A stretch of 48,817 bases of DNA from a bacterium (lineage in GTDB: Bacteria > Patescibacteriota > Microgenomatia > UBA1400 > PJMF01): assembly GCA_030539095.1 (NCBI GenBank), contig JAUNST010000002.1:1-48817 (forward strand), read 5' to 3'. The notes beneath the pieces were generated by a model, which worked only from the letters and a program-made list of their open reading frames with translations, did not search any database and was not told the DNA's origin. Within the stretch, counting starts at the first letter, position 1. Every line of letters begins with the position of its first letter. The translations under genes were made by a program, and so were the position numbers. Below, one piece after another: positions 1 to 33,949 of the stretch.

Positions 1-177
1 TACTCTGGCTACTCAAATGCTGGTGGAGGGCTCTACCTTCAGGGCAGCAACGGCATCTTTTGGTCTAGTACGAGCAACAGTGCTGTCAGCGCTCGTCGGC
101 TGTACTTCAATTCTACTGCTGCTAGCCCGTCGAGCAACAACGGCAAGTTCTACGGATTCACAGTCCGCTGTCTCTAA
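1..177 (+). CDS. Possible 3' end of a FISUMP-domain protein gene (5' part off-window); module M1
   Basis: Frame 1 is open from the window edge. It reads YSGYSNAGGGLYLQGSNGIFWSSTSNSAVSARRLYFNSTAASPSSNNGKFYGFTVRCL, with stop TAA at 175-177. Confidence 0.5.
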   Translation, partial: YSGYSNAGGGLYLQGSNGIFWSSTSNSAVSARRLYFNSTAASPSSNNGKFYGFTVRCL

Positions 178-209
178 AACTGAAAACACGTTTGCCTGTA
201 AAAGCGTAA

Positions 210-413
210 AACTCTAGCTTCCTGGGTCTCTATTCTGGTGCTTCTCTTTCTTCTGGAGAGCTTATTAATCAGAGTGGCTATGGCGGATCATGGTCCAGCA
301 CAATTAGTAGCGTTGTTGACGCCCACAGATTGGTGTTCAACTCCACTGCTGTTAATCAGCTGGGCAACTATAGCAAATTCTTCGGCTTTCCAGTCCGCTG
401 TCTCCAAAACTGA
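210..413 (+). pseudogene. Start-less FISUMP-like cassette M2
   Basis: Frame 3 is open only between TAA 207-209 and TGA 411-413. No ATG or RBS. Ends ...KFFGFPVRCLQN. Confidence 0.45.
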
Positions 414-441
414 AAATTTTATTTGCTCAAAAGAGCGTTAA

Positions 442-795
442 GCCCTCGGTTTTCTGGGTCTCTACTCTGGTAGTTCCAATGCTGTCGGAGGACTTGGAAA
501 CCAAGGTGATTATGGTCTTTTCTGGTCTAGTACAGACCTTAGTGTTACCAGCGCTCGTAGGCTAAATTTTGGTCCTACTACTGTTAATCCAACAAACTAT
601 AGCAATAAGTTTGGCGGTTTTGTAGTCCGCTGTCTCAAAACTGAAACAACTATTTGCCCGTTAAGGCGTAAAACTCTAGCTTCCTGGGTCTCTACTCTGG
701 TCGTTCCTTTACCACTGGAGATCTTGGCACTCAGGGCGGCGGCGGCTACTTTTGGTCCAGTACGGGCTACAGTGCTGTCTACGCTCGTACTCTGA
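442..795 (+). pseudogene. Start-less FISUMP-like cassette M3 (module ends about 636; reads on out of register into M4)
   Basis: Frame 1 is open after TAA 439-441. A 1-nt deletion (ctc-aaa instead of ctc-c-aaa) removes the module stop, so the frame runs on to TGA 793-795. Confidence 0.45.
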
Positions 796-875
796 ACTTC
801 AATTCTACTGCTGCTAACCCGGCGGGCAACAACAGCAAGTTCTACGGCTTCACAGTCCGCTGTCTCCAAAACTGA
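672..875 (+). pseudogene. Start-less FISUMP-like cassette M4
   Basis: Frame 3 is open between TAA 669-671 and TGA 873-875. No ATG. Ends ...KFYGFTVRCLQN. Aligns without indels to M1. Confidence 0.45.
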
Positions 876-878
876 AAG

Positions 879-3587: not shown

Positions 3588-3657
3588 CTAATATCTTTAT
3601 TATACAACAGATTGTCTTCTCTATTTTTGCAAAAATATGCTATAATACTGCTTCTTT

Positions 3658-3846
3658 ATGGTGAAAAAGATTAAAACTTACTTGGCCGGTGTAGTGGAAG
3701 AATTAAAAAAAGTTTCTTTCCCTAGCAAGGAAGACACCAAGCAAATGACGATTTTAGTTATTGCTTTGTCGACCATAATGGCGCTTTATGTCGCCGGCGT
3801 AGATTTCGGTTTTAGCAGTTTCACTAAATGGTTAATCAGCAAATAA
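3658..3846 (+). CDS. secE: Preprotein translocase subunit SecE
   Basis: 62 aa with a single C-terminal TM helix, N-terminus ...EELKKVSFPSKED, and a position directly upstream of nusG. Confidence 0.8.
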   Translation: MVKKIKTYLAGVVEELKKVSFPSKEDTKQMTILVIALSTIMALYVAGVDFGFSSFTKWLISK

Positions 3847-3860
3847 AGAGGAATAACTTT

Positions 3861-4493
3861 ATGGCTAGTAAACAAACGGCAAATCAAGAAATTGTGGCTC
3901 CTGAAACTCAGGAAGTACAAGTGATGTCACCTAATGTGGTGGTGATTTCTGATGCCGTTAACGACAAAGCAAAGTGGTATATCGTCCACGTTTATTCTGG
4001 TCACGAAAATAAAGTTTCCGAGGCTTTGCGTCAGCGCACTCAAACTTTGGGTTTGGAAAGCCAGATCTTGCAAACCTTGATTCCAACTCAAGAAAAAATT
4101 CAAATTAAGCGTGGTCAACGCAAAACTGTGAATGAGAAAATTTTCCCTGGTTATATGTTAATCAATATGGAAATGAGCGATGCTAGTTGGATTGCGGTTA
4201 AAACCACTCAAGGTGTAACCGGTTTTGTGGGCACTGGCGGCAACAAGCCTTTGCCTCTTTCCAAGAGCGAAGTAGAAGCAATTCAAAAATATATTAGCCA
4301 AACAGAAACTAAATTTAAGGCTGATTACATTGAAGGCGAAGCGGTTAAAATTATCGATGGACCTTTCAACGATTTCTTGGGTACTGTGAGCAAGATTGAT
4401 GATGATAAAGGCAAGGTGGAAGTCTTAATTAATATTTTTGGTCGAGAAACACCAGTGGAATTAGACTTCTTACAAATTGAAAAAGTGAAATAA
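3861..4493 (+). CDS. nusG: Transcription termination/antitermination factor NusG
   Basis: KWYIVHVYSGHENKV NGN motif and a C-terminal KOW (GEAVKIIDGPFNDFLGTV). ATG at 3861 is preferred over the ORF-track start 3828 because aaagagg lies upstream. Confidence 0.9.
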   Translation: MASKQTANQEIVAPETQEVQVMSPNVVVISDAVNDKAKWYIVHVYSGHENKVSEALRQRTQTLGLESQILQTLIPTQEKIQIKRGQRKTVNEKIFPGYMLINMEMSDASWIAVKTTQGVTGFVGTGGNKPLPLSKSEVEAIQKYISQTETKFKADYIEGEAVKIIDGPFNDFLGTVSKIDDDKGKVEVLINIFGRETPVELDFLQIEKVK

Positions 4494-5808: not shown

Positions 5809-5917
5809 ATTGGGCAAAAAAAAGAAGCATCAGCGCTTTTGCTTTTGCCACAAACAAAATTTGTCCTTGCTTTTTAAAAATTAAATTTTCATTTCTTCTG
5901 AGCTTTACTCTGTTTTA

Positions 5918-5970
5918 GCAGGCAGATTAAGATAAATTAAAATAATGATAATCTATCTTAATCTGCCTGC
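5918..5970 (+). promoter_or_regulatory. Perfect 17-bp inverted repeat (19-nt spacer) in the leader of the 6004 ORF
   Basis: gcaggcagattaagata (5918-5934) is the exact reverse complement of tatcttaatctgcctgc (5954-5970). The right arm can alternatively pair with ggcag just downstream. Confidence 0.5.
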
Positions 5971-6003
5971 AAGGGCAGAAAATAAAACTGAGGAGGAATA
6001 CCC

Positions 6004-6471
6004 ATGAAATTGAACGTCATCGATCGGCACAAAAAGTCGCTGGTGAAACTCTGCAGCCCTAACAACGGCCAGCTCATTCTTACCAGCACGGACTTCGACA
6101 GACGTGAGCTAATGTCTGGAATGATCTGGCAAGCACTGGGCGGCGATATGGTGGAGGTTCTAAGCACCAATGCTTATGGCTTTCTGCTGTTGATCACCCG
6201 CTTTCAGCCGGATGAAGATGACGAGCTGTGCTGGGTTTCTTCGGACTGGAGACCAATTAATCTCTCCATTCTTAAGAGAGAGACTATCAGTCCGAAAAAG
6301 TTAAAGGCGCTCGTAGCCGACGAATCCAGCCTGCTCTTGCAAGAGAGCGATCTTGGCACCCTCGTCTACCGCGTGAATACCAAGCGTCAAGTCAGCGAGC
6401 TTGTCTGGGTGAAACCCCCAGCCGCTCCCGCCAGCAAGTCATTCGCAACTCTACAGGCCGCTTTGGTCTAA
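6004..6471 (+). CDS. Hypothetical protein (GC-rich islet gene 1)
   Basis: 155-aa ORF with strong SD gaggagg 7 nt upstream. GC and codon usage are clearly higher than in neighbouring genes. Confidence 0.6.
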   Translation: MKLNVIDRHKKSLVKLCSPNNGQLILTSTDFDRRELMSGMIWQALGGDMVEVLSTNAYGFLLLITRFQPDEDDELCWVSSDWRPINLSILKRETISPKKLKALVADESSLLLQESDLGTLVYRVNTKRQVSELVWVKPPAAPASKSFATLQAALV

Positions 6472-9269: not shown

Positions 9270-11627
9270 ATGCCCAACATGTTAAACAAAACGGATAAAA
9301 ATCAAAACGATCAAATTTTAGTTTTGCCAGTGGCGCCTTTGAAAGAAGGTACTATTTTCCCTGGACTAGAGACAAAAATGCTTTTTTCTCGTCCGCTTTC
9401 GCAGGCAGCTTTGCGCGCCTGCGGCAAAACTAAAAACTTAGTTTTTGTCACTACTCAAAAAGATGGCAAAATCGACGTGCCCACCACTGGTCAACTTTTC
9501 CGTGTCGGCGTCATTATCGAAATTAAAAGTACTGAAGTGGTGCCGGAAGGCATTATGGCCACTTTTCGCGCCGTCAATCGCGGTAAAGTTTTGAGTTGGC
9601 TCAAACGACGCGAAATCATGATTGCTCAAGTAGAAATGCTGCCAGATGTGGAAGATTTACCTAAAGAGCAGCTGAGAGTGATGAGCAATCATTTGCTAGA
9701 AGCTTTTTTGCGTTTGGTTCATTTAGGTAGCGTTAGCAATAGCGAAGAATTTGTAAAATTTTTGCGTCAAGTGCCTCCGAGTGAAGTCGCTGATCACATC
9801 GCCAATGTTCTGACTGCTTCTTTGGAAAGAAAACAAAAAATCCTGGAAACGCTCAATATTGGTGAACGTTTACAATTGGTTTTGGAGCAATTGGAAACAG
9901 AGTTGCAAATTGTTCAGGTGGAAAAACAAGTTATTGCCAAAACAAATGCTAAATTCGAAAAGAATATGAAGGAGAGCATTTTGCGTGAACGTTTGCAAAT
10001 GATTCAAAAAGAATTGGGCGATACGGACGACGAAGAAGAAGTGGCAGACGAATACAATAAACAGCTGGAAAAGTTAAAAACCAGCGATGATAATAAAAAG
10101 AAAATTAATAAAGAGCTCAAACGTTTTCGGCAAACGCCAACTATGAGTCCGGAAAGCGGTTATTTACGCACTTGGTTGGATACGGTTTTTGAATTGCCTT
10201 GGGGCAAATTGAGTCATGACCAATTAGATCTCAAAGAAGCAGCAAAAATTCTTGATCAATCGCATTACGGTTTGACTGAAGTCAAAGATCGTATTCTGGA
10301 ATATATTGCTGTTTTGCAATTGCGTGAAAAACAAAAACAAGCAAAAAAAACGCCGACTATTTTATGTTTTGTTGGTCCGCCAGGAGTAGGCAAAACTAGT
10401 ATCGGCAAGAGTATTGCTCAAGCTCTCGGTCGCCAATTCACCAAAATTTCTTTGGGTGGCGTGCACGACGAAGCGGAAATTCGTGGTCACCGACGTACTT
10501 ATGTTGGCGCCATGGCGGGTAGAATTATTACTGGTTTAAAACAGGCCGGCACGGCCAATCCGGTTTTTATGCTTGATGAGATCGATAAAATGGCTCATGA
10601 TTATAAAGGTGATCCTTCTTCTGCGCTGTTGGAGGTTTTAGATCCTGCTCAAAATCAGAGTTTTGAAGATCATTATTTAGACATGCCTTTTGATCTGTCG
10701 CAAGTGATTTTTATTGCTACAGCCAATACTTTAGATATTCCTTCTCCACTTTTGGATCGGATGGAAATTATCCGTTATAGCGGTTATACCACTGCGGAAA
10801 AGCAAATGATCGCTAAACGTTATCTTCTACCGAATGCGATTGAAGAAAATGGTTTGCAAAAGAAACAAGTGAAAATTAGTGATCGCATTTTGACGAAGAT
10901 TATTGAGACTTACACTCGAGAAGCTGGCGTGCGTGAACTTGATCGTCAATTGAATAAAATCATGCGCAAAATTGCTAAAGATATTTTGGAGAAGCAGCTC
11001 GAAAACGTGACGGTTGACGCAGCTAAATTGCATCAGTATTTAGGCCCAGAAAAATTTGATGTTTCTTTGCGCAATCAAAAAAGCGAAGTTGGCGTGGCCA
11101 CTGGTTTGGCCTGGACTAGCGTTGGCGGCGAAGTTCTTTTTGTGGAAGTAGCAGTCATGCCTGGTAAAGGCGAAATCAAATTGACTGGTCAACTTGGTGA
11201 CGTGATGAAAGAATCAGCGCAAGCAGCTTATACTTTTATTCGTAGTCACGCTCAACAATTAGGAATTGAACAAAAATTAATTGAGAAAAGCGACTTACAT
11301 ATTCATGTGCCAGAGGGAGCTGTACCTAAAGACGGACCTAGCGCCGGCGTAACCATGGTGACAGCTATCGTTTCTGCTTTAACTAAGAAACCAGTTCGCA
11401 AAGACGTAGCGATGACCGGTGAAGTTAATTTACGCGGTCAAGCCTTGCGAATTGGCGGGCTGAAAGAAAAAGCTTTAGCTGCTCATCGTGCCGGTTGTAA
11501 AACTGTTTTAATTCCAGCGGAAAATGAACGCGATTTGGTGGAAATTCCAGAAAAAATTCGCCAAGAAATTAAATTTATTCCGGTGAAAAATGTCACCGAG
11601 AATTTAACTTACGCTTTAGAGAAATAG
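9270..11627 (+). CDS. lon: ATP-dependent Lon protease
   Basis: GPPGVGKTS Walker A, catalytic-Ser motif KDGPSAG, and GGLKEK. The start is ambiguous: ATG 9270 or 9279. The ORF-track TTG at 9267 overlaps the -10 box. Confidence 0.9.
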
Positions 11628-17816: not shown

Positions 17817-18725
17817 TTAAACAACTACTTCTTTACCAAAACGTTTCAAGAAAAAATTACGGGCAGCTTTTTTTTCTACTTGATCGCCATGAAAATAAAG
17901 TCTCCTGGCTAAACGATAAGCGCGCAATTTAGTTAGACCTCTTCCATAGCGTGAAAAAAATAATAGCCGGTTGCGAGTTAGATAAAAATTTTGTAGAGGC
18001 GAGCCAGATCCTTGAGTTGAACCGCCATTTTTATGCCAAATAACAGCGCTAGGACAAAATCCTAACTGCCAATTATTAGCGCGTAAACGTAAACTTAAAT
18101 CTGTATCTTCGTAATAAAGGAAATAATCGTCATCGAAAATTCCACTCGCCGCCAAAGCTTCTCTGCGGACCAGCAGACAGCAGCCGCTTGCATAATCAAA
18201 AGTGCTAATTGTTTCGAATTGGCCACGATCAACCTCATCTACACCTAAGTGAAAAGTTTGGAGATTGTCCCAGTCAATGACACCGCCGGCAAACCAAATT
18301 ACCTTACCTAAATTATTTTTGCTGTAACTTTCACGATGAAATTCATCGCCGGCGGCAAAATAAATTTTTGGGCTAACTAAACCCAATTTGGGATTTTCTT
18401 GTAAACATTGATAAAGTTTTTCCAAAAAATCCGCTGCCACTAAAGTATCTGAGTTAAGTAGTAAAAAATAATCCGGATTATAGTGTTGATTAGCGTAACG
18501 GAAACCGAGATTATTGCCGCCGGTGAAACCTAAATTCGTGTCACTGCGAATAAGCTCAGTATTCTTAATTTTTTTTGGCAAAACAAAATTATCTTTAGAA
18601 GCGTTGTCAACTAAAATCACTCGATAATCAAAATTTTCATGTTTGATCTCGTTTAAACTTTCCAAACAAGCTTTTGTTTCTTCGTCGGTATTATAGTGGA
18701 CAATAATAATCGCGATCTTATCCAT
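17817..18725 (-). CDS. Glycosyltransferase family 2 (rhamnosyltransferase-like)
   Basis: IIIVHYNTDEET...VDNASKD...LLNSD. Confidence 0.8.
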   Translation of the reverse strand: MDKIAIIIVHYNTDEETKACLESLNEIKHENFDYRVILVDNASKDNFVLPKKIKNTELIRSDTNLGFTGGNNLGFRYANQHYNPDYFLLLNSDTLVAADFLEKLYQCLQENPKLGLVSPKIYFAAGDEFHRESYSKNNLGKVIWFAGGVIDWDNLQTFHLGVDEVDRGQFETISTFDYASGCCLLVRREALAASGIFDDDYFLYYEDTDLSLRLRANNWQLGFCPSAVIWHKNGGSTQGSGSPLQNFYLTRNRLLFFSRYGRGLTKLRAYRLARRLYFHGDQVEKKAARNFFLKRFGKEVVV

Positions 18726-18741
18726 ACTTTTAATTATACCG

Positions 18742-19677
18742 CTAAACTTTGAGTTTGCGGCGGATTTGCCAATAAAATTTACTTAAGCCCTTGCTTTGGC
18801 CAACGAGCAAATCCGCCCACCAATAGGCGGCTTCTTGCTGGAAGCGGTGACGTAATTTCTTCAAACGTACTAAAGTTAACGGTCGATATGGGAATTTTTG
18901 CGCTTGCCAGACTTTACCTTTGGTAATCATTTCGTTTTGCGCTTGCAAAAAAGACAAAATTAAACCATGATTACCTTCGAGCATACCTTTGTCAGCAAAA
19001 CCCCGGCGCCAAAATTCATCAAAAAAACTTTGCCATAAAATCTCTGGAGTGACATCAGTTTTTTTGCCTAGACTAAATTCGTTTTCCGCTTGAACGCTGC
19101 TATAGCGATTGCTGCGCTCCAAAAATTGTTCTAAAGTTTGATAATTATGATGGACAATGGCTAAATTACGATCTTCGCAAGGGAAATATTCCGCTTTGCC
19201 AATAATTTTTGGTACAGAATGAATAGTCGGCAGCCAACGAATAGCACCTTGGCGCCAAAGCCGTAACTGGTAATCTGGATACCAGCCAGTATCTGTCATC
19301 GCTTGATCGAAAATAATATTGCTGCGAGCAATAAAATAAGCTTCGGCAATCGGGACTGTTGTTTCTTCATTATCAACTACTTGGCGGATTAATTTCGCTA
19401 GTTCTGGCTTGATATCTTCATCACTATCAAGCAAAAAAATCCATTCGCCTTTAGCTTGAGCAAAAGCAAATTCGCGTGCCGGCTCCACAAAACCTAGTTC
19501 CGGATGCGGATATTGAGAAATATTGTCGGTAAATTTCTTAGCAATTTCCAAAGTTTTATCCGTGCTAGCCATATCCACCACTACGATTTCATCGGCAATA
19601 GCCTGGACGCTTTTAAGTGTTTGCTTTAAATATTTTTCGCTATTTTTAGTGTTGACAACAACAGAAAGTTTGATCAT
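18742..19677 (-). CDS. Glycosyltransferase family 2
   Basis: SVVVNTKNSEKYL...VDMASTDKT...LLDSDED. Confidence 0.8.
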   Translation of the reverse strand: MIKLSVVVNTKNSEKYLKQTLKSVQAIADEIVVVDMASTDKTLEIAKKFTDNISQYPHPELGFVEPAREFAFAQAKGEWIFLLDSDEDIKPELAKLIRQVVDNEETTVPIAEAYFIARSNIIFDQAMTDTGWYPDYQLRLWRQGAIRWLPTIHSVPKIIGKAEYFPCEDRNLAIVHHNYQTLEQFLERSNRYSSVQAENEFSLGKKTDVTPEILWQSFFDEFWRRGFADKGMLEGNHGLILSFLQAQNEMITKGKVWQAQKFPYRPLTLVRLKKLRHRFQQEAAYWWADLLVGQSKGLSKFYWQIRRKLKV

Positions 19678-25628: not shown

Positions 25629-25634
25629 TTTGAG

Positions 25635-25716
25635 CGGAAGTGACAGGACTCGAACCTGCGATGGGTTGCCCCGACGGTTTTCGAAACCGTTGCCATAGCC
25701 GCTAGGCGACACTTCC
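25635..25716 (-). tRNA. tRNA-Ser (anticodon CGA), CCA not encoded
   Basis: GGAAGTG-TC-GCC..GGC-A-ACGGT-TTCGAAA-ACCGT-(14-nt variable arm)-GCAGG-TTCGAGT-CCTGT-CACTTCC-G. Confidence 0.85.
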
Positions 25717-25790
25717 TTTATGTTGCGCATTCTACTTTATTTTTCCTTAACTTTCTATTTGTTTGCTTTTTTATTAAGTTTTCACTTAGT

Positions 25791-25907
25791 CTTACTCCCG
25801 CCCCGCCAACGGCGGGGTGCCATAGCCGTCCACGACTTCGACTTTATTCATAGCCGCCCACGACTTCAGGAGCGGTCCCGCCAAACGGCGGTGGTAGCGA
25901 CACTTCC
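25791..25907 (-). repeat. tRNA-Ser 5'-fragment-like repeats flanked by GC-rich hairpins
   Basis: On the minus strand, GGAAGTGTCGC (identical to the first 11 nt of tRNA-Ser-CGA) ends at 25907. Two 19-nt copies of GAAGTCGTGG(G/A)CGGCTATG lie at 25849-25867 and 25821-25839. Hairpins lie at 25878-25891 and 25801-25817. Confidence 0.7.
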
Positions 25908-25921
25908 AAATGACTTAAATA

Positions 25922-26010
25922 TGGCGGAGATGAGGGGAGTCGAACCCCTGAAGCTCTTGCGAGACTCACGCTTTCCAAGCGTGTGCAATTGACCACTATG
26001 CGACATCTCC
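25922..26010 (-). tRNA. tRNA-Ser (anticodon GGA), CCA encoded
   Basis: GGAGATG...CACGC-TTGGAAA-GCGTG-(long variable arm)-AGGGG-TTCGACT-CCCCT-CATCTCC-GCCA. Confidence 0.9.
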
Positions 26011-26096
26011 ACTCGGATTTTTTATTATAACAGAAATCGTCACAGAAGCAGTGGCGATTTCTTTTTTTCCTCTAGTAAGTTTTTTTCGTTGCCGTT

Positions 26097-26113
26097 CGCA
26101 GACCGCTGAGGTC
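26097..26113 (+). repeat. attL core (cgcagaccgctgaggtc)
   Basis: Exact 17-nt match to 36220-36236. Confidence 0.7.
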
Positions 26114-26134
26114 GTCGCCCACGGAAAGGAACCT

Positions 26135-26377
26135 ATGTTCTCCACTCGTTTTCGCTCTTGCCCAATTGAGCTCAAAGAAAGCGTGCCCAATTATAATCAG
26201 GCACTTATTTATTTAAGTGCGGAAATTCAAAAAGCTTATGGCTTTTTTCTCTACCAAAGTATTTACAATCTGCAAAGAGATCATGGGCTCACTAATCAAG
26301 ATATTATTAAAGCTTTTGGTTTTACGCGTCAGAACTTGAGTAAATTGGCTAAAAAGTACCGGCACTATTTTGTTTAA
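26135..26377 (+). CDS. Small HTH protein (regulator or excisionase candidate)
   Basis: 80 aa from ATG 26135 (aaagga SD). The ORF-track start 26051 would span attL. C-terminal HTH-like LTNQDIIKAFGFTRQNLSKLAKK. Confidence 0.55.
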   Translation: MFSTRFRSCPIELKESVPNYNQALIYLSAEIQKAYGFFLYQSIYNLQRDHGLTNQDIIKAFGFTRQNLSKLAKKYRHYFV

Positions 26378-26380
26378 TTT

Positions 26381-26557
26381 ATGCCAGCAGTTTTACCGCT
26401 TTTGCGGGCTTTATGCCGGAAGATTGAACGTTCACAAAGAAAACAGTTGAAACGAATTAATCGCGCGCGCGAGCGCGCGCAACAGCCGCTTTTTCCTACT
26501 TGGCAAGATTATCAATTGTGGACGCAAATACGCTTGTATAAAGAAAAACAGCGTTAA
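26381..26557 (+). CDS. Small basic hypothetical protein (58 aa; below the ORF-track cutoff)
   Basis: ATG lies 3 nt after the previous stop, and its own stop lies 3 nt before the next ATG. Both junctions share the same ttaatttatg sequence. Confidence 0.4.
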   Translation: MPAVLPLLRALCRKIERSQRKQLKRINRARERAQQPLFPTWQDYQLWTQIRLYKEKQR

Positions 26558-26560
26558 TTT

Positions 26561-26995
26561 ATGCGTGTGAATAAAAGCGGCTGGATCAAGCTTTACCGGC
26601 AATTGCTTCTAAGTGACCTTTGGCAAGATAAACCTTTTGCTCGCGGTCAAGCTTGGGTCGATTTACTTTTACTCTACGACAAAAACGCTAACCGTTTACA
26701 AATTAGCCAGCGAGAATTAAGTCGTCGGTGGGGCTGGAGCCTAACTAAAGTGCGAAATTTTTTGGCAGAATTGCAAGAGCATCAAGATTTAGAACTCATG
26801 CAAGAACAAAAAAAGACCACTCTTTTGCTGGCTAAATACCGCTTTTTTCAAGAAATTGCTTACACAAAAAAATCATTAGCGAGCGCAGTTAACTGGCAAA
26901 AACCAGAGGCATTAAAGAATAAGCAAGAAAAAGAAAAAAACAGCGCTTTGATTAGTAATCAAGCGCTGCTAGACTTTTGGGAAAAACAACGATGA
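26561..26995 (+). CDS. Winged-helix DNA-binding protein, replisome-organiser/replication-initiator-like
   Basis: N-terminus GWIKLYRQLLLSDLWQDKPFARGQAWVDLLLL...ISQRELSRRWGWSLTKVRNFLAELQ resembles phage replication-organiser N-termini. This is my recollection of that family, not a search result. Confidence 0.4.
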   Translation: MRVNKSGWIKLYRQLLLSDLWQDKPFARGQAWVDLLLLYDKNANRLQISQRELSRRWGWSLTKVRNFLAELQEHQDLELMQEQKKTTLLLAKYRFFQEIAYTKKSLASAVNWQKPEALKNKQEKEKNSALISNQALLDFWEKQR

Positions 26996-27309
26996 CCAGT
27001 GCTTGTTTAACTTGGGAAAAAACCAAAAAATTTTACTTGGAGGCTTGGCAAGCTGGTCAATTGGAAACCGTAATTTTGCAACAAGCGCAAACTTATTACG
27101 GTAGTCTGGCTAAAATGACTGCTAGTGGGCAATTGCATCAAGCTGGAAACTTTTTAGTCATGCAATTGCCCACTGCGAACCCAGATTTTAGTTTAACTCT
27201 ATTTGTCCATCGTTACCGATCAGAGTTATCTTATTTAAATTTGTTAAATCGTTCGCAAAATCTGATTTTTCGTTTACCACCTCTTAAGTCAAAAACCACT
27301 ACTGGTTGA
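26992..27309 (+). CDS. Hypothetical protein
   Basis: 105 aa; ATGA overlap with the upstream gene. Confidence 0.5.
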   Translation: MTSACLTWEKTKKFYLEAWQAGQLETVILQQAQTYYGSLAKMTASGQLHQAGNFLVMQLPTANPDFSLTLFVHRYRSELSYLNLLNRSQNLIFRLPPLKSKTTTG

Positions 27310-27310
27310 C

Positions 27311-27655
27311 CTAACTAAAAAAGACGTCTTGAATTAATTTGCTAGTTTTATTATCAAAATGATCCAAGCAACGAGTGGCGTGAATAATTTTTTGCAAAGC
27401 ACGCTTTTTGATTCTTTGTACGGTCGCCCGCGAAACAGCTATTTCATCAGCGATTTGTCCTTCAGTGTGGTCAAGGTAATAATTTTTACTAATCACTTCA
27501 GATTCTTCTTGAGACATCTGAAGAGCGGCACATAACTGACCAGTGATGCCTGGATTGCAAAGACGCAAACGCTCTTTGACAATTTTTTCTTCTAACATAT
27601 ACAAAATTAAAGAATGAACACATTTTAGAACGGTTTTTTCAAGATTTTGCTTCAA
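27311..27655 (-). CDS. Sigma-70 region-4-like HTH protein
   Basis: ...SEVISKNYYLDHTEGQIADEIAVSRATVQRIKKRALQKI matches the region-4 pattern. Confidence 0.55.
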   Translation of the reverse strand: MKQNLEKTVLKCVHSLILYMLEEKIVKERLRLCNPGITGQLCAALQMSQEESEVISKNYYLDHTEGQIADEIAVSRATVQRIKKRALQKIIHATRCLDHFDNKTSKLIQDVFFS

Positions 27656-27728
27656 TAAAGGCTCACCTTTTACCAGAGGAAAGGCTCTTTTTTTACATTG
27701 GCTGATAATTTTTACTCAAGAAAAAAGC

Positions 27729-27917
27729 TTATGGCTTTTCCAGACTGTTTTTGCTGCCTAGATTAATCGAAAAGTAGGCACTAGCCATGGAGATAGTGAA
27801 CATCCACCAGTCATCTGCGGTTAAAAAACCGCGCAAAACTAAGATAAAACCTAGAATTACTGGAATCAGCCACGCCAAAAATTTGCGGCTTAATAATTTA
27901 TGACCGATTTCGAGCAT
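27729..27917 (-). CDS. Small two-TM membrane protein (holin-like)
   Basis: 62 aa with two hydrophobic helices, directly downstream of the fibre gene. Confidence 0.4.
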   Translation of the reverse strand: MLEIGHKLLSRKFLAWLIPVILGFILVLRGFLTADDWWMFTISMASAYFSINLGSKNSLEKP

Positions 27918-27938
27918 CTGTTGAGACTTTCTAGCGCC

Positions 27939-28775
27939 TTATTCCTGGCGACCACCGAGATAAAGCCGAAAACCAGCGTTGCACTTTTCAATCATGTAGG
28001 TGGTCGCCTTGTTGGGCAAATTATTAGGCTCTAAATCGCTATTCATGCTCAGAAAACTGCTATTAAAAGTTAAATTGCGGTTGCCGACATTGTCTTGAAC
28101 AAAAATAAACGCTAGCCAATCCCCGATTTCCATATTAGTTGGTAGATTAAGGGTGAAATCTTGATTAGCTGTCACTTCTAGTTGATCGCTTAAACTTCCG
28201 TCTGGCGTCGTGCTGGCGCTATCGGTGATAATTGTGACTGCTCTGGGCGTTTTTAAGTAGGCGCGCCGGCGTTTATCAGTAATTTTCTCATTCAGAATCG
28301 CCGTGGCTCCAGCAGCAACTTCGATGACCGCTAATTTTTCAAAAGGGAAAAGCGTGCCTAAGGCCGTTTGAATTTCCGCGTCGGTGAGCTCCACTGGCGA
28401 AGCCGCTGGTGTACCAGCTAAAATCGCTAACTTAGCTACGTCTTTGCCTTCATTATCTTCGTCTGGCTGAGCATTTAAATCTAGATAAAGCACCACTGTA
28501 TCCAGGCGTGGATTAGAAGTGGCATTACTGCTAACGGTTAAAGTTTCCACGGCATCGCTGATAACCGGATAAGCATTGCCGCCGGTACTGTTTTTAAGAT
28601 AAGCGCGACCAGCTTGGACACTCACGCCCAAACTGCTAGGATTATTTTCTTCCACGGCAAAGTTGCTGCCGCTAAGTTTAATCATTCCGCCAGAGCGGAC
28701 TGCGTCGGTGAGTTGTGCGAGAACGGTTTTTTCTGGATGATTAGCGACTCCGGTGCGCATGGTATAAATTGACAT
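27939..28775 (-). CDS. Tail fibre / receptor-binding protein candidate
   Basis: 278 aa, the last large gene of the tail module. N-terminal part (...GRAYLKN...NPRLDTVVLYLD) resembles phage minor structural proteins. Confidence 0.5.
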   Translation of the reverse strand: MSIYTMRTGVANHPEKTVLAQLTDAVRSGGMIKLSGSNFAVEENNPSSLGVSVQAGRAYLKNSTGGNAYPVISDAVETLTVSSNATSNPRLDTVVLYLDLNAQPDEDNEGKDVAKLAILAGTPAASPVELTDAEIQTALGTLFPFEKLAVIEVAAGATAILNEKITDKRRRAYLKTPRAVTIITDSASTTPDGSLSDQLEVTANQDFTLNLPTNMEIGDWLAFIFVQDNVGNRNLTFNSSFLSMNSDLEPNNLPNKATTYMIEKCNAGFRLYLGGRQE

Positions 28776-28787
28776 AAAAACTTTCTT

Positions 28788-29885
28788 TTAATTATTTTCT
28801 AATCTTTCCAAACGTCGTAAAATTTCGCGGTAGTCTTGCAAGAAATCCTCGCTCGCTTGTTGCGGATTGAGAGTGAGATCAAGTAAGCAAGTTCCGTCTT
28901 TGTAAGTAAGCGTGCGCTTGCTTAGGCGCAACATTTGATCGAGATCAAGTTCGCGCAAGCGCAAGCGCACGCGATCGCCCACCTCATAACTTTGCCAGTC
29001 TGGCGCATTACCGAGCACGCTCAAAGTAATTTGATTATTACTGAGCGGAAAAGCGTTTTCCGCTAAATAAGTGGCTGCTCGTTCTGCCAAGCTGGCTTCG
29101 GTAGTTAAATCAGTGGCACTTAAATAACTTTCTTGTTTTCCCCAAGCCGTAATAGCATTTTGATCGGCAAAAGTATAACTGGCATTATTGCCTTTACCTT
29201 TAATTCGCACTTGATTCACTAAGTTGCCTAAAAGTCCTAGGCGACTTTGAAAACTCAAAATGTTTTGTTCGTCAAAAATAATGCCTGGTTGATCACTGCC
29301 AAGACGCGGATAAGCTAAATTTAATTGCCAATTCGCATTAAATTGCCAATCAAAACCATTGGCAATTTTATTAGCACTTAAACCGACTAAAGCGTCTAGG
29401 ACGCGCGCATTTTTAAAAGCGCGCGTCACTGTTACAGCGGTCTGACTAACTTCGCCCATGGTTAAACCTAAATCGGCACCGGCTTGGGCTTGAGTTAATA
29501 AATCCTCTGCCACCGTCATTAAATTAACATCGGTGTAATTTTGGCTGACGCCAGTTAAGCGCTTGCTAAGCAAGCTGCTCGCATCCGCAAAACTCAAGTC
29601 TAAACTTACGTCGTTTTGATCGCCATTCAAATTGGCGCTCGTCAACACACCTTTAAACAAAATGGTTTCTTTTACTTCATCATAAATGATAATTTTGCGC
29701 CAATTATCAAAAAGTAGTTGCCGCACCGTCTGCTGATTATTCTTTGCCACTTCGCGCAATAATACATACGGCACGCTTATTTGTCCCGATTCACCAAGGT
29801 TTAATGTCGTAGTCCAGCTAAACTGACTAAAAGGTAACCACCATTTTTGCGTTTCTTGCTTGTTGAGTAAATAAAGACTGAGCAT
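28788..29885 (-). CDS. Tail-associated hub protein (Tal / Sipho_Gp37-like)
   Basis: 365 aa, positioned after Dit. Pattern ...NGFDWQF...IIFDEQNI...VRIKGKG...GDRVRLRL typical of siphovirus Gp37-like proteins (from memory). Confidence 0.55.
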   Translation of the reverse strand: MLSLYLLNKQETQKWWLPFSQFSWTTTLNLGESGQISVPYVLLREVAKNNQQTVRQLLFDNWRKIIIYDEVKETILFKGVLTSANLNGDQNDVSLDLSFADASSLLSKRLTGVSQNYTDVNLMTVAEDLLTQAQAGADLGLTMGEVSQTAVTVTRAFKNARVLDALVGLSANKIANGFDWQFNANWQLNLAYPRLGSDQPGIIFDEQNILSFQSRLGLLGNLVNQVRIKGKGNNASYTFADQNAITAWGKQESYLSATDLTTEASLAERAATYLAENAFPLSNNQITLSVLGNAPDWQSYEVGDRVRLRLRELDLDQMLRLSKRTLTYKDGTCLLDLTLNPQQASEDFLQDYREILRRLERLENN

Positions 29886-29886
29886 T

Positions 29887-30729
29887 TTAAATTCCTAAAT
29901 AAGCGTCGTTATAGGCTAAAGTGGCGCTGCTAGCGGTAGTGGTGTCGTTGGCAGCAAAAAGAACATTGTTGCTGCCAGGAGCCACCGTCCACCATTGGCC
30001 AGAAATCGTCGGTAAAATATTGGTATTTTGTTTTAAAATAGCTGTCCGTTGATAAAAATCCAACACCAAAGTGTCGCCAGCACTTAAAGCCTGGCTACAT
30101 TGCAAACGTTGCGTTCTAGTTTGGTTAAGTAAAATAAATCCGTTCACCGGGCCAACGATGGTCGCCTGTAAATGGCTATAAGCATTGCCGGAGTTGGTTA
30201 ATTGAGTATACATTTCGCTGCTGGCGTTTAAATTCATGGCAGCCGGAACACTCATGGGAATTTGCAAACCGCCTAAATTAGCGATGCTGAGAGTGGCGCT
30301 TTTACTAGCGCCGAGTAAATACGATTTTTCCGTTTGAATTTGGATAAGAAACTCGCTTTTATTGACGTCGGCGGCGGCCATGGAATTTTGAATTGCCAAC
30401 ACTGCCGCCTTGCAAGTTAATTGCTGATTGTTATTGAGAACAAAAGTAAAAGTTTTCTGATCACTTTCGCTGCTGCCTGGATCAATGCTAAGTAAACTCA
30501 GAAAACGCTGTTTCTCAGCGGCGTTATTATCACCATTGGCAGTGATAATAACGCCAAAACTAATTACTAGGCTGCGGTAGCAAGCTTTGCCTAAAGCCAC
30601 GCCTTCGCCGCCGGCGCGGGCGTAACTGGCCACTTCAATCGTCGGACTGCCGGCGCCGTCGAGACTACTAATAAAACGGGTGCCGCTAATATTGACGCTG
30701 GTACCGTTAATGAGAATATTGCTGATCAT
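29887..30729 (-). CDS. Distal tail protein (Dit, Sipho_tail-like)
   Basis: ...LTNSGNAYSHLQATIVGPVNGFILLNQT...LSAGDTLVLDF is typical of Dit. ATG 30729 has an aaagga SD, so it is preferred to 30771. Confidence 0.6.
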   Translation of the reverse strand: MISNILINGTSVNISGTRFISSLDGAGSPTIEVASYARAGGEGVALGKACYRSLVISFGVIITANGDNNAAEKQRFLSLLSIDPGSSESDQKTFTFVLNNNQQLTCKAAVLAIQNSMAAADVNKSEFLIQIQTEKSYLLGASKSATLSIANLGGLQIPMSVPAAMNLNASSEMYTQLTNSGNAYSHLQATIVGPVNGFILLNQTRTQRLQCSQALSAGDTLVLDFYQRTAILKQNTNILPTISGQWWTVAPGSNNVLFAANDTTTASSATLAYNDAYLGI

Positions 30730-30743
30730 AATTCTGTTTTCCT

Positions 30744-31703
30744 TTAATAGCTCGGACTGCCGGCGAGCCAACCTAAACGTTGGATTAATGCTTCTAGTTG
30801 CTCGCTGCGATTAACAGTGGCGTTAACAGTAATCTGTGCCTGATTATTGCGATTTACAATTGTATTTGGCACAGCTTGCTGACCGCTAAGCATAGCCTTG
30901 GAAAGAACAAACTCGCCGGCGTGCACCAAAGCTAAACCAGTTTTCGGCACGTAACCGCCATTTTGAAATTTGGGAATTTGCCAATTGAGATCGAGACCAA
31001 TTTTGCCACCAACTTCGTTGACAAAAGCCAAGAGGCTATTAATTTTATCTATGACTCCGTTTACCAAGCCACTCACATAATTAATAATGTTGGCTGCCCC
31101 AGACTGGCAAACGCTACTTAAACCTTGCCAAAGTCCTCGCCAGAGTGCCGTGGCCAAATTGCCAAAAACAGTTAAACTATTGCCCAGAATGGTTAAAAGT
31201 TCACTCACGGCGGCGATCATCGTGGTGGCGGAAAAATCGCAATCAGCGATTAAAATTTCCCATTGACTATTGATAAAAGCCAAAAGCTGCGGCAATATTT
31301 CTTGTAAACTGAGGAGCAAATTGCCTACACCACCGGTGAAACTAACAAAAAGCGCATCTAAAGTTTGGGTAAAATGAGCACAAGTTTCGTCGAGTTGTTG
31401 CAAATATGGCGTAGCTACTTGAGTTGCCACTGGCAAATCTTCTTGTAAAAATTTCAAGAAGATTTGCGTGTTCCCTTGAAAATTTTCATCAGCAAAAACG
31501 TTTTGCAAGCCAACAAACGGACCTTTTAGATCTAAATCGGCTACTACTTGGCTTAAATTTTCTAATTTTTTTTGATATAAACCAACTGCTTGTGTCAAAT
31601 TAGTAATTTCTTTTTGATCAAGCGCCAGAAGTTGGTTATATTCTGCTTCGTCAGCAGTTAAATAACGTTCACCATAGCGTAATTCATTCGCAGTCATTGA
31701 CAT
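30744..31703 (-). CDS. Short tape measure protein
   Basis: 319 aa, helical N-terminal half, Gly/Leu-rich hydrophobic middle, C-terminal ...GGYVPKTGLALVHAGEFVLSKAM. Sits immediately upstream of Dit, with the chaperone gene further upstream across the 31704-32446 interruption. Confidence 0.6.
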   Translation of the reverse strand: MSMTANELRYGERYLTADEAEYNQLLALDQKEITNLTQAVGLYQKKLENLSQVVADLDLKGPFVGLQNVFADENFQGNTQIFLKFLQEDLPVATQVATPYLQQLDETCAHFTQTLDALFVSFTGGVGNLLLSLQEILPQLLAFINSQWEILIADCDFSATTMIAAVSELLTILGNSLTVFGNLATALWRGLWQGLSSVCQSGAANIINYVSGLVNGVIDKINSLLAFVNEVGGKIGLDLNWQIPKFQNGGYVPKTGLALVHAGEFVLSKAMLSGQQAVPNTIVNRNNQAQITVNATVNRSEQLEALIQRLGWLAGSPSY

Positions 31704-31828
31704 AAATACCTTTACCTATTTCAGATGATTTATTTTCTATTTTTATTGATCGGTTTTTATACATTGCTGCTTTTTTGCGGCTATCTTTATGCTAAAATGA
31801 ATTTTGGATTTATCTGTACTCGAGAGCA

Positions 31829-32158
31829 ATGGAAAAAACTAAGCGCAAATTAAGACGCCGTTTTTCGCAATTATCATTAGCTCAAGCGGCTAGAGTTTGT
31901 GAAAAACTTGGTTCACCAAAATTAGAAAAGGCAATCGTTTTAGACACTTATTGCCGATCTTTGGGCGAACAAAATTTAATTGAAAAACATCAAATCTCGC
32001 GGGCGACGCTCACTAGAGAAAGACAAACTTTCTGGCGCCGTGTGGACGCAGCCTTATTCGTACAAGATATTTTGCCGCCAGATGTTTACGATATCTTAAT
32101 TAAGGTTTTCTTAATTTTGATGACGATGTTTATGTGTAAATTGTCGGTTGCTATGTAG
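31829..32158 (+). CDS. HTH (sigma region-4-like) protein encoded antisense to the tail genes
   Basis: 109 aa; ...AIVLDTYCRSLGEQNLIEKHQISRATLTRERQTFWRRV. Confidence 0.5.
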   Translation: MEKTKRKLRRRFSQLSLAQAARVCEKLGSPKLEKAIVLDTYCRSLGEQNLIEKHQISRATLTRERQTFWRRVDAALFVQDILPPDVYDILIKVFLILMTMFMCKLSVAM

Positions 32159-32160
32159 TT

Positions 32161-32192
32161 GCATTTTTTCAACCGGGAAAACTTGAGCCTTT
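32161..32192. repeat. Motif copy c1 (TTTTTC-N6-GAAAACTTGAGCCTTT)
   Basis: gcattttttcaaccgggaaaacttgagccttt. 25 of 32 nt identical to c2. Confidence 0.7.
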
Positions 32193-32267
32193 AAACTTAA
32201 AAAGGTAGTTTACATCTGGAAAAAGCAAAAATAAATTAATTTTAGATTGATTGAAAGCACATAAAAT

Positions 32268-32299
32268 GCACTTTTTCGAGTGAGAAAACTTGAGCCTTT
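32268..32299. repeat. Motif copy c2
   Basis: gcactttttcgagtgagaaaacttgagccttt. Confidence 0.7.
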
Positions 32300-32392
32300 G
32301 TGCGGCTAAAACTTTTCTAATTAGGTTGATAATATTAAAGCTGTTCAACTAAGTACTGATAAATGGCTAAAGTGGCTTGGACAGTCGGAAAG

Positions 32393-32426
32393 GAGACCTG
32401 CCAAACATAGGCGGCGGGTCTCTTTT
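32393..32426. terminator. Hairpin terminator (possibly bidirectional) after the G/GT gene
   Basis: gagacctgcc (32393-32402) pairs with ggcgggtctc (32413-32422) with one G-U pair. tttt follows on the + strand and ctttcc on the - strand. Confidence 0.5.
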
Positions 32427-32446
32427 CAGTTAGCGCCGATTTAGGT

Positions 32447-32988
32447 TCATTTTTTCTGACGTTGGCAATCTCGCTCGGCTTTGTTTTTAATGCGTCGATA
32501 AAAAAGCATTTGTTGAATCCAGGCTTCTGGCTGAGCTAGGAGTTCCCAATAAGTGAGATGAAAAGTGTCGCATAAAAAACAAATTTCCAGATCTGGAGGT
32601 AAAGACGAGTCACTTTCACCGCGCAAAAAGCGGTAAAGTGGCTCTTCTAAACTTTTGGGACACTACTGCTGGCGGCTAAAAGCTGATTAACTGCGGCGAA
32701 AATTTTTTCGCCGTCTTGAGCGGGCAAATCAAAAATCTGTTCCAAAATTTCTTCTGGTTGAGTGTAACTTTGCCCGCCTATTTGTAGTTCTTGAATTAGG
32801 CTTTTAGCCGCCAGGTCTTGCGCCTCAAGCACCACGGTGCCAGGCACGCCAACCGTGGTTGGCGTGCCATTGGCGTTAATTTCGCTGCCGCTCAAGTAGA
32901 GTTTTTGTAACTCATGCTTGAGGCGCATGGAAACGAAATCCTTCAACAGTGCCTTATTGCCGGAATTTAGATCAACCGTGATACTCAT
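32447..32988 (-). CDS. Tail assembly chaperone G-T fusion made by -1 programmed frameshift
   Basis: Slippery heptamer C-CCA-AAA (plus-strand coordinates 32653-32659) lies 1 codon before the TAG. The -1 frame stays open for about 69 more codons, to TGA at 32449-32447. Confidence 0.6.
32647..32988 (-). CDS. Tail assembly chaperone (gpG-like)
   Basis: 113 aa, acidic, between the tube gene and the tape measure gene. Carries the slippery site at its 3' end. Confidence 0.65.
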   Translation of the reverse strand: MSITVDLNSGNKALLKDFVSMRLKHELQKLYLSGSEINANGTPTTVGVPGTVVLEAQDLAAKSLIQELQIGGQSYTQPEEILEQIFDLPAQDGEKIFAAVNQLLAASSSVPKV

Positions 32989-32989
32989 T

Positions 32990-33949
32990 TTAGCTAGCGT
33001 AACTACTAATTTGATTAATTAAGGTCAATTCGAAAAGAGTTTGCGTACTAGCATCCAAAGTGGCCACAAATTCCACTTCTAAACGAGCCGCTTCAGCGTT
33101 AATCGGATTGAGCAAAGCACTAAAATAGGCCTTTGGAAGGCTCAATTTCAGGCTTTCTTTGTTCACGTTGGTTCCGGAGAGACTGTCACCGTTAAAGGTG
33201 ATTTCTAAGGCTTTAGCGGCCTTGTCTAAATAGGCTTCGTAAAAACTTATCTGGTTGCTATCATTCAAATAGAGCACAAATTTGCCTTTTACCTCATAAC
33301 GACCGCTAGCAAAGCCTTGTGGATTCACATTGCCCAAACCGTATTGAGCTTGTTTATTGCTGATAATCTCCACTTCAAAGTTGGAAACCAGCGGTAAACT
33401 GGTATTATCAACTTTGAGACCAGCTGCCACGTCGGCATGAGTAAAAGTGTGTCCTAGATTGTAAGTGACAGTGGCAGCGCTGTTTACGTCTTCTACCACG
33501 CTCCTGCCGAGCAGACCATAAGTGGCTAAGATACTTCCTCCTGGCTCGGCAGTGATTTTCGCCGAGTTCACTAAAACACCGGCGTAACGCACCGGAAAAG
33601 TATCATTGTATTGCTCGATGGTGAAACTGGCTTTATTGCCTGTGGGCAAAAACTGATGTTCATAAATGCCAGTTTCGCCAGTGACAGCGGTGGTGGTAAC
33701 CGTACCACACAAACTGCGCCAGAAGTAACCAGCCGCCTGACTATCTAAGTCGGTCTCAATTTCGCCTTCATGCGTCACTAAACCTTGGTAATAGTCGCTG
33801 TAAGCGCTTAAACTGCCGTCAAAAACTTCTTGACCGCGCAAATCGACCAAAGTTTTCATGCCTTCGCCAGCTCGAATTGGCAAACCCTTTGTCGGCGCCA
33901 CCGCTGTACCAAGTGTGCTTTCTAAACCAAAACTAAAATGTTTACTCAT
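32990..33949 (-). CDS. Major tail (tube) protein
   Basis: 319 aa. The assignment is mainly by synteny: it lies immediately upstream of the frameshifting chaperone gene. Confidence 0.55.
   Translation of the reverse strand: MSKHFSFGLESTLGTAVAPTKGLPIRAGEGMKTLVDLRGQEVFDGSLSAYSDYYQGLVTHEGEIETDLDSQAAGYFWRSLCGTVTTTAVTGETGIYEHQFLPTGNKASFTIEQYNDTFPVRYAGVLVNSAKITAEPGGSILATYGLLGRSVVEDVNSAATVTYNLGHTFTHADVAAGLKVDNTSLPLVSNFEVEIISNKQAQYGLGNVNPQGFASGRYEVKGKFVLYLNDSNQISFYEAYLDKAAKALEITFNGDSLSGTNVNKESLKLSLPKAYFSALLNPINAEAARLEVEFVATLDASTQTLFELTLINQISSYAS

Follow-up and report, generated by a model that had tools for sequence, protein, structure and literature searches.

A tandem array of bare, out-of-frame FISUMP-type cassettes on a Patescibacteriota contig carries the probable footprint of a diversity-generating retroelement

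What process wrote the sequence differences among four short protein-like repeats that stand, in alternating reading frames and with no start codons, at the left end of a bacterial contig? The contig is JAUNST010000002.1 (Patescibacteriota, Microgenomatia; assembly GCA_030539095.1), and the window that we analysed is the entire contig (48.8 kb; 48,817 nucleotides). Its positions 1-878 consist of four direct, head-to-tail cassettes, M1 to M4, which end against a convergent uvrD/pcrA gene (Table 1). A preliminary description of the window, made from its letters alone, read the differences between M1 and M4 as the work of a diversity-generating retroelement (DGR), a known type of system that rewrites the binding surface of a protein through error-prone reverse transcription. 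To our knowledge, prokaryotes have no other system for the targeted hypermutation of proteins, and DGRs abound in bacteria of the Candidate Phyla Radiation (CPR), whose genomes are tiny. We conclude that M1 and M4 are very probably variable repeat (VR) copies produced by adenine-mutagenic retrohoming, and that positions 1-878 are the last, downstream stretch of a tandem array of VR copies, each about as long as a template.

The argument starts from M1 and M4, which are 83% identical. Their 58 codons align without an indel and differ at 24 places. Within the last 45 codons 14 differ, and ten of these (codons 16, 17, 19, 25, 26, 30, 35, 42, 45 and 48) are changes from one NNC codon to another at codon positions 1 and 2 that exchange S, N, G, Y and I only. 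Synonymous changes account for two of the 14 (TCT/TCC and GGA/GGC), and the final six codons of both copies are identical. These counts, all made in the preliminary description, were recovered on recounting. Furthermore, every base change in the ten NNC codons (13 of 13) has an adenine in one of the two copies. The long genes of the window prefer AAT over AAC for Asn (332 versus 102, or 23% AAC) and TAT over TAC for Tyr (198 versus 105). Thus, the C-ending codons at the variable positions oppose the bias of the genome and are not its habit. M1 was rejected as the template of M4, and M4 as that of M1, because the changes go in both directions.

A candidate template was found with a profile of the four cassettes, which gave 4493 matches at E <= 1e-3 among 1.84 billion representative proteins. 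The top match consisting of a single stretch is P0139, a singleton cluster encoded on L089, which is a 1271-nt Logan contig from a different sample (SRR24915786). L089 carries, in order, 375 nt without an open reading frame (ORF), cassette A, a 70-nt linker, cassette B, a spacer of ~95 nt, and an ORF that is cut by the contig end. Cassette A reads FGFLGLYSGNSNASGGLNNQGSNGNFWSSTSNSAVNARQLNFNSTAANPTNNNNKFNGFTVRCLQN-stop and has Asn at 16 of its 58 codons, spanning essentially all variable positions; these are 12 AAC and 4 AAT codons, and the corresponding numbers for cassette B are 14 and 4. With no ORF upstream, cassette A has the form of an AAC-rich, non-coding template repeat (TR), though one that lies outside the window.

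The truncated ORF of L089 reads MNDLYLELVQAYYDARTHKRNT...REIFAATFRDRVIHHLVFNQ...DSYSCRLGKGTH. Its 117 residues have a sole PDB match, 8ub7_A 'Reverse transcriptase' (E 8e-15), whose chain of 328 aa is as long as bRT, the DGR enzyme of Bordetella phage, although the identity of 8ub7_A could not be confirmed. The ORF is 57% identical to the RVT_1 reverse transcriptase (RT) of L094, a locus that also encodes bAvd, and homologues with ~56% identity adjoin bAvd in L092 and L093. Judged by this match and these relatives, it is a predicted N terminus of a DGR-type RT. Its relatives reach 62% identity at most, most of the matches are pieces of 100-205 aa, and no placement in an RT clade was achieved with the 117 residues present. 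Outside the template adenines M1 is nearly identical to cassette A, and from this near-identity we infer that L089 comes from the same population as the window or from a very closely related one.

L089 appears to hold two templates, as its positions 376-835 carry two AAC-rich, template-like cassettes in tandem upstream of one RT gene. Cassettes A and B differ at 5 adenines and 26 non-adenines, and because they differ mainly at non-adenines both keep their adenines. Cassette B was rejected as the template of M1 and M4, which show 23-25 non-adenine mismatches to it.

With cassette A as the template (49 adenines versus 125 other positions; Fisher test), the mismatches are adenine-specific and directional. 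M1 differs at 15 adenines and 4 other positions (15/19, or 79% on adenines; p 1.5e-6), and at 11 and 1 in the last 135 nt (11/12, 92%). M4 differs at 22 adenines and 11 other positions (22/33, 67%; p 2.7e-7), and at 15 and 3 in the last 135 nt (15/18, 83%). The corresponding counts are 23 and 37 for M2 (23/60; p 0.02), with 18 and 29 in the last 135 nt, and 21 and 37 for M3 (21/58; p 0.07), with 18 and 28 in the last 135 nt. DGR surveys use a threshold of 75% or more of TR-VR mismatches at template adenines, and by this measure M1 and M4 behave as copies of a template such as cassette A, whereas M2 and M3 do not. When the roles are reversed there is no bias, with 1 adenine and 18 other mismatches for M1, and 4 and 29 for M4. 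Of the template adenines, 31% are changed in M1 and 45% in M4, to G, T and C. If the template adenines are set aside, the last 135 nt are 97-99% identical (M1 and A, 95/96; M4 and A, 93/96; M1 and M4, 94/96). The adenine mutagenesis that the preliminary description had deduced from two variable copies is thus supported by a related contig, where an AAC-rich cassette stands beside an RT gene and the mismatches fall mainly at the adenines of that cassette.

The non-adenine mismatches cluster in nt 1-39, where 3 of the 4 in M1 and 8 of the 11 in M4 are found. This clustering fits a 3'-anchored replacement with a variable 5' crossover, which is a known property of DGR homing (PMC5758913). Such a replacement would also explain why the signature was visible in the preliminary description only in the 3' 45 codons. 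M4 is a mosaic whose last 135 nt are template-A-like and whose first 39 nt are unlike those of M1 and cassette A, and this suggests that M4 is an older cassette overwritten from its 3' end.

Both ends of the cassettes are conserved at the nucleotide level. Each unit has a 20-nt 5' block (TTCCTGGGTCTCTACTCTGG), a 174-nt body and the 3' element AGTCCGCTGTCTC(N)AAAACTGAAA, after which a variable linker of ~35 nt follows. The 5' block is nearly invariant in nucleotide sequence, M2 and M3 included. Likewise, AGTCCGCTGTCTC(N)AAAACTGAAA is invariant in M1-M4, in the manner of the conserved 3' boundary element of a DGR, and the 3' 13-mer is identical in the four cassettes and in cassette A of L089. 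The last four codons (VRCL) are identical across the cassettes (4/4, versus 2/17 of the interior codons for conserved residues; hypergeometric p ~0.0025), nucleotide identity extends past VRCL into AAAACTGAAA, and no A-to-N change occurs in the last six codons. This invariance is found although synonymous sites in the rest of the cassettes are saturated. The scaffold codons of M2, M3, M1/M4 and the L089 templates give proportions of synonymous differences (pS) of 0.5-0.77 (0.5-0.76 for M2) and of nonsynonymous differences (pN) of 0.15-0.21, and those of L089 cassettes A and B give pS 0.48 and pN 0.10. The 3' element is a candidate anchor for cDNA integration that may function like the initiation of mutagenic homing (IMH) element of a DGR, and the cDNA would be resolved at the 5' block.

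The array cannot be translated. Its period is 230/232/230 nt, the reading frames of M1-M4 are 1, 3, 1 and 3, stop codons flank every cassette, and none of the four has a start codon. The frame of M3 continues through its linker, yet is out of frame with M4. There are no stops and no indels in the 696 nt of cassette sequence, whereas all three linkers (~170 nt) contain frame changes and stops. Each cassette has about one template length. The 5' end of M1 is truncated by the contig start within the conserved 5' block, and with it the upstream context is lost. M2 is 65% identical to M1, and M2 and M3 together range from 60 to 65% identity to M1; they are old, diverged paralogues. No further copies of the cassette are present elsewhere on the 48.8-kb contig. 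Read-through of the array as one protein was ruled out by the stops and the frame change in every linker, and an alternative genetic code was ruled out because the other genes of the window are long ORFs under table 11. A promoter and terminator scan of positions 1-1200 gave results at chance level only, and Rfam had no match in positions 1-1000 of the window or in L089. The G+C content of the array (1-877) is 48%, compared with 41% for the whole contig.

The fold class of the encoded peptide is recognizable from the C-terminal end of a known domain. The cassettes cover only model positions ~110-187 of PF09603 (Fib_succ_major) and TIGR02145, with E values of 4e-4 to 0.015; M1 covers positions 130-186 of the 187 of Fib_succ_major (E 0.004), and M2 matched TIGR02145 only and not the Pfam model. 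The scores of 16-21 bits lie below the cut-offs of 33.9 and 41.65 for a whole domain, and the cassettes are fragments of the FISUMP domain, not domains. Their invariant columns are W, S, S, T, A, L, F, T, K, F, G, F, V, R, C and L. The cassettes carry the C-terminal signature aromatic-W-S-S-T...G-F-x-V-R-C-[LV] and are homologous to complete FISUMP proteins, as the 4493 matches include multi-domain proteins that have a full-domain spacing of 200-340 aa and end in the cassette unit. No sequence relative of the cassette profile was found in PDB. The repeat is predicted to encode the ligand-binding C-terminal third of a FISUMP, or C-type-lectin-like, domain. VRs that overlap DUF1566, DUF823 or Fib_succ_major motifs are a recognized class of DGR targets, 'category d', all of which are CLec2 (PMC5758913). 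The preliminary description had proposed C-terminal variable repeats of the CLec fold. The fold and the C-terminal position agree with the match to the last third of FISUMP, but the cassettes do not end an intact target gene.

We infer that the genome of the window carries the same template and RT module as L089 and that this module is active. An AAC-rich template repeat, almost identical to cassette A, would be transcribed, and a DGR reverse transcriptase would copy it and misincorporate opposite its adenines. The resulting cDNA would replace a resident cassette, anchored at AGTCCGCTGTCTC(N)AAAACTGAAA and with a crossover near codons 9-14. The array copies would be non-expressed duplicates of the VR unit that retain the cis elements for targeting. 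M1 and M4 would both have been rewritten recently. For M1 this would have happened very recently, as only one of the 96 non-adenine positions in its last 135 nt departs from the L089 template. M2 and M3 would come from other templates, L089 having two diverged ones, or would long not have been rewritten. The expressed target gene, the template and the RT would have to be located past the end of the contig or at another place in the genome.

Several observations weigh against this account. As the preliminary description had stated, the window holds no template repeat and no RT, the latter judged by a motif scan and by phmmer with two DGR RTs over the 48.8-kb contig. No Avd was found when three bAvd sequences were run with phmmer against the 254 stop-to-stop ORFs of at least 50 aa (E up to 10), and HRDC was not searched for. 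The template and RT are known from L089, a contig of another sample, and the window's genome would have to carry them too. No cassette lies within an intact ORF, which is atypical for DGR VRs, and the sequence upstream of M1 is cut off. One third of the M4 mismatches to cassette A are at non-adenines. M2 and M3 do not resemble template A despite having the same boundary elements, they show a weak adenine bias (p 0.02-0.07), and no template was found for either of them.

The 3' boundary adds to these difficulties. No hairpin follows the 3' element, as the linkers and the region after M4 have folding z values, relative to shuffles, of -0.8 (linker L1), -0.3, +1.0 and +0.3. These stretches lack a GC-rich hairpin or cruciform such as lies just 3' of the IMH in Bordetella phage BPP-1; strong structure is found instead after cassette A of L089, where the 70-nt linker between A and B forms two strong hairpins (z -6.0). 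Moreover, the 3' 13-mer of cassette A equals that of the window, so a distinction between IMH and IMH* is not evident. The only consistent difference between L089 and the window at the 3' end is CTGAGAA versus CTGAAA, and the 13-mer has diverged in cassette B only (GTGCGTTGCCTC).

Several wider searches gave no extension of the locus. Exact look-ups of the helicase and of the 160-aa ORF next to it, as read from the ORF list, had no match, since their start codons are not those of the called genes. The linker pattern AGTCCGCTGTCTC(N)AAAACTGAAA is absent from the genome and metagenome contig databases, and the 5' block pattern gave three chance matches in metagenomes and none in viral contigs. 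In the word-indexed protein database, no protein shared enough 5-mers with the M4 peptide, and no cassette is present at the best 80 helicase loci of species-representative genomes.

Arrays of bare cassettes do occur at other DGR loci. Among the 150 best representative proteins, 24 are cassette-only arrays (spacing <=90 aa) that belong to several visibly different sequence families, and giant proteins in the same list show the full-domain spacing of 200-340 aa. The L094 locus comprises, in order, a 1263-aa target gene that ends in a complete FISUMP-like domain, bAvd, ~33 cassettes over 11.7 kb, and RT. The spacings of its cassettes are nearly all multiples of 3, and between an embedded AAC-rich unit and one cassette, 20 of 50 adenines and 5 of 142 other positions are mismatched. 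The target gene ends in 185 nt (5913-6097) that an array cassette (9756-9940) repeats with 100% identity between unrelated flanks, and this duplicate is either a non-mutagenic cassette transfer or an assembly duplication. The called 543-aa RT ORF of the same locus (17849-19480) opens with long-linker sequence and an in-frame FISUMP-type cassette, with the RT proper starting from ~residue 143.

A second locus, L095, combines a template-like cassette with an RT encoded on the other strand and with six to seven cassettes arrayed in frame, and L099 has an array only. The DGR loci of L094 and L095 are unrelated to the locus in the window. P0131, P0133, P0135, P0147, P0175 and P0139 are gene-caller read-throughs of cassette arrays. 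The DGR surveys and reviews found in a limited literature search describe multi-target or multi-VR elements and rare VRs outside ORFs, and no arrays of template-length cassettes. The arrays of L094 (~33 units) and L095 raise the question of whether such repeats are junk, multivalent lectins or variant stores.

Other explanations of the window array have to be weighed against retrohoming. That no retroelement took part, and that the cassettes are tandem paralogues whose loops are under diversifying selection for N, S, G and Y, with NNC as a by-product of codon choice, is highly improbable. With these four residues written as NNC, almost any interchange involves an adenine by construction, and M2 and M3 vary at the same loop positions with non-NNC codons. 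However, selection among paralogues cannot explain why Asn (AAC/AAT) occupies 16 of 58 codons in a cassette beside an RT gene, why the mismatches are directional, why 97-99% identity at non-adenines accompanies change at 31-45% of adenines, or why the codons end in C against the AAT/TAT bias of the genome. It is scarcely credible, in turn, that the array is an assembly artefact, a false tandem array made at a repeat loop of the assembly graph from population variants of one hypervariable VR and from its template. VR hypervariability does disturb assemblies, and the first base of the contig falls within the conserved 5' block of M1, which shows that the assembler broke on the repeat. Yet M2 and M3 differ from M1 and M4 at ~30% of non-adenine positions and are saturated at synonymous sites, the three linkers differ in sequence and length, and M1 and M4 have non-adenine differences from each other in their first 39 nt. 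Decay of a once-translated protein of tandem FISUMP C-terminal mini-repeats, or of tandem target genes, is possible though doubtful; the array would then be a pseudogene that has no role today, and the DGR footprints in M1 and M4 would be historical. The period of 231 +/- 1 nt is like that of a 77-codon unit with a single-base indel per linker, in-frame cassette arrays exist elsewhere (L094, P0124 and P0127), the relatives at 89%, 78%, 76% and 73% helicase identity lack the array, and the contig is without an RT. All indels and stops are nevertheless in the linkers, where three indels would fall by chance (171 of 867 nt) with p ~0.008. Decay also has to contend with the 1/96 non-adenine differences between M1 and the L089 template in the last 135 nt, and with cassettes that end in VRCLQN-stop and so resemble natural gene ends rather than internal repeats.

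The remaining proposal adds a function to the DGR reading. The array might be a silent store of promoter-less, DGR-written VR cassettes that undergo homologous recombination or gene conversion with an expressed FISUMP-type target between the conserved 5' and 3' blocks, so that DGR mutagenesis would be joined to a cassette system of the vls/pilS kind. We regard this as unlikely, even though the cassettes are intact while untranslatable in place and the linkers are broken. The pS and pN values between cassettes also indicate protein-level constraint, but this constraint and the intactness may be inherited from selected templates with no selection on the array, since the L089 pair gives similar figures. 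Both cassette ends are kept at the nucleotide level even in M2 and M3, the two parts of the M4 mosaic have different affinities, and L1 resembles L3. A start-less array is present, and signs of transfer are confined to the M4 mosaic and to the 185-nt copy at the unrelated L094 locus. Random adenine mutagenesis cannot yield the same sequence twice, as seen in that copy, and the 24 cassette-only arrays among the 150 best representative proteins point the same way. However, such a copy is known once, on a metagenome scaffold of an unrelated lineage, and could be an assembly duplication; with spacings in multiples of 3, those arrays are perhaps simply translated. An expression site for the window array would be located outside the contig and is not seen on it, and no published description of such a mechanism was found in our limited literature search. 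A broader form of the proposal is that FISUMP-type DGRs hold untranslated cassette arrays as a heritable library, in which retrohoming writes variants and homologous recombination between the conserved ends moves them into and out of the expressed target. This too seems improbable at present. If true, the system would both generate and record binding-site variants, and the window array, for which translation is excluded, would be its clearest case.

The surroundings of the array differ from those in relatives, and the contig carries a further feature of note (Table 1). In the closest relatives of the helicase (89%, 78%, 76% and 73% identity), uvrD is followed by nrdD or its NrdR-box region, so that synteny gave no extension of the array. 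At positions 867-900 of the window, the array abuts the uvrD stop where relatives (L081 5752-5954; L082 4590-4842) have NrdR-box-like palindromes (ACCACAATATATTGTGGT). The array marks a lineage-specific rearrangement. Farther along the contig, two tRNA-Ser genes on the minus strand (25634-25716 and 25922-26010) are followed by a phage-like block that extends to ~34000. The block at 25634-34000 looks like a prophage remnant in a CPR-type genome.

The relatives of the L089 RT offer some side observations. On an unrelated contig, L090 (7695-10492), a DGR-type RT fragment lies immediately downstream of a gene for a UvrD-family helicase; the neighbouring genes, with TonB_C and sigma-70 family domains, look Bacteroidota-like to us, and the uvrD adjacency that L090 shares with the window array may be coincidence. 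L091 has two 157-aa ORFs within 1.3 kb (2281-2754 and 3594-4067), one of them an RT N-terminal fragment, and a similar arrangement is seen in L092 and L093. The RT genes of L091-L093 look split or duplicated. None of the loci L090-L093 contains a cassette of the window family.

Table 1. Coordinates of the cassette array, the adjoining helicase gene and the phage-like block in the window
Feature	Coordinates	Strand	Remarks
M1, VR-like copy	1..174	+	frame 1; translation YSGYSNAGGGLYLQGSNGIFWSSTSNSAVSARRLYFNSTAASPSSNNGKFYGFTVRCL, then TAA
M1 3' boundary element	162..186	+	AGTCCGCTGTCTC, then T, then AAAACTGAAAA
Linker L1, variable part	187..218	+	stops in M1 and M2 frames; net -1 frame change
M2	219..404	+	5' block 219-238, body 231-404, frame 3; TAA upstream, TGA downstream; no start codon
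M2 3' boundary element	392..416	+	AGTCCGCTGTCTC, then C, then AAAACTGAAAA
M3	451..636	+	5' block 451-470, body 463-636, frame 1
M3 3' boundary element	624..646	+	AGTCCGCTGTCTC then AAAACTGAAA; extra base missing
M4, VR-like copy	681..866	+	5' block 681-700, body 693-866, frame 3
M4 3' boundary element	854..877	+	AGTCCGCTGTCTC, then C, then AAAACTGAAA; final unit of array
uvrD/pcrA	879-2852	minus	convergent with array; stop codon 879-881 directly after M4
DnaD-like loader	26561-26995		phage-like block
Sigma-like regulator	27311-27655		phage-like block
Virion structural / tail-fibre-like protein	27939-28775	minus	siphovirus-type tail module
Minor tail protein, Prophage_tail match	28788-29885	minus	
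Dit	29887-30771	minus	
Tape-measure fragment	30744-31703	minus	
Minor tail protein	32990-33949	minus	

If M1 and M4 were indeed rewritten by a DGR, the recipient units of retrohoming need not be parts of genes, and a segment of template length that has the right ends seems to suffice. The locus therefore bears on the minimal target features that a DGR must recognize. The array copies may be bystander targets, remnants or a variant store. In this case a DGR footprint was recognizable from two variable copies alone and was then confirmed by a template from another sample. DGR surveys that demand a VR inside a called coding sequence may miss or mis-annotate such loci, and gene callers have made artificial 'proteins' of 200-976 residues from several arrays.

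Among known systems, the nearest are the category d DGRs, for which the Legionella LdtA DGR is the exemplar (Wu et al. 2018; PMC5758913). The VR is in both cases the C-terminal part of a FISUMP/DUF1566-like lectin fold, and both combine an AAC-rich template with A-to-N changes, a conserved 3' end and a variable 5' boundary. The described VRs of category d, however, close an intact target gene at its 3' end, and this gene often encodes a surface lipoprotein (PMC5758913), whereas the VR units of the window are bare and out of frame, arranged head to tail and separated by stops. A further difference is seen in the related L089, where two apparent AAC-rich templates, diverged from each other, stand in tandem. 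DGRs of Patescibacteria and the CPR are known (Paul et al. 2017, as cited in PMC5758913; DGR clade 2, Roux et al. 2021, PMC8144416). The window shares their host lineage, as the best named relatives of its helicase in the species-representative set are metagenome-assembled genomes of the Patescibacteria/Microgenomates group (<=~50% identity), and its element is likewise cellular and not phage-borne. In contrast, cassette-only arrays are not described in the DGR papers that we found.

Elements with several VRs or targets are known from Stenotrophomonas, where eight target genes stand in tandem, from Pelodictyon phaeoclathratiforme, where one VR is not part of any ORF, and from Marichromatium, where one ORF has three tandem FGE-sulfatase VRs (PMC5758913, PMC3521204, PMC6642488). 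Like these, the window has several VRs per element, VRs outside an ORF and a tandem arrangement, but they repeat whole genes or domains, and the window repeats a template-length segment of ~190 nt plus a linker of ~40 nt. The array also resembles Borrelia vls, Neisseria pilS and Mycoplasma vlhA, which are likewise tandem sets of promoter-less, start-less cassettes that are open, protein-like and conserved at their ends. It differs from them in having no documented expression site or exchange, and in that the variation between M1 and M4 is adenine-templated and not only recombinational. Thus, the chemistry, the fold class (category d CLec2 VRs) and the occurrence of DGRs in CPR bacteria are all known, and what is unusual is the tandem, out-of-frame array of bare VR units without a target ORF, together with the apparent two-template module in a relative.

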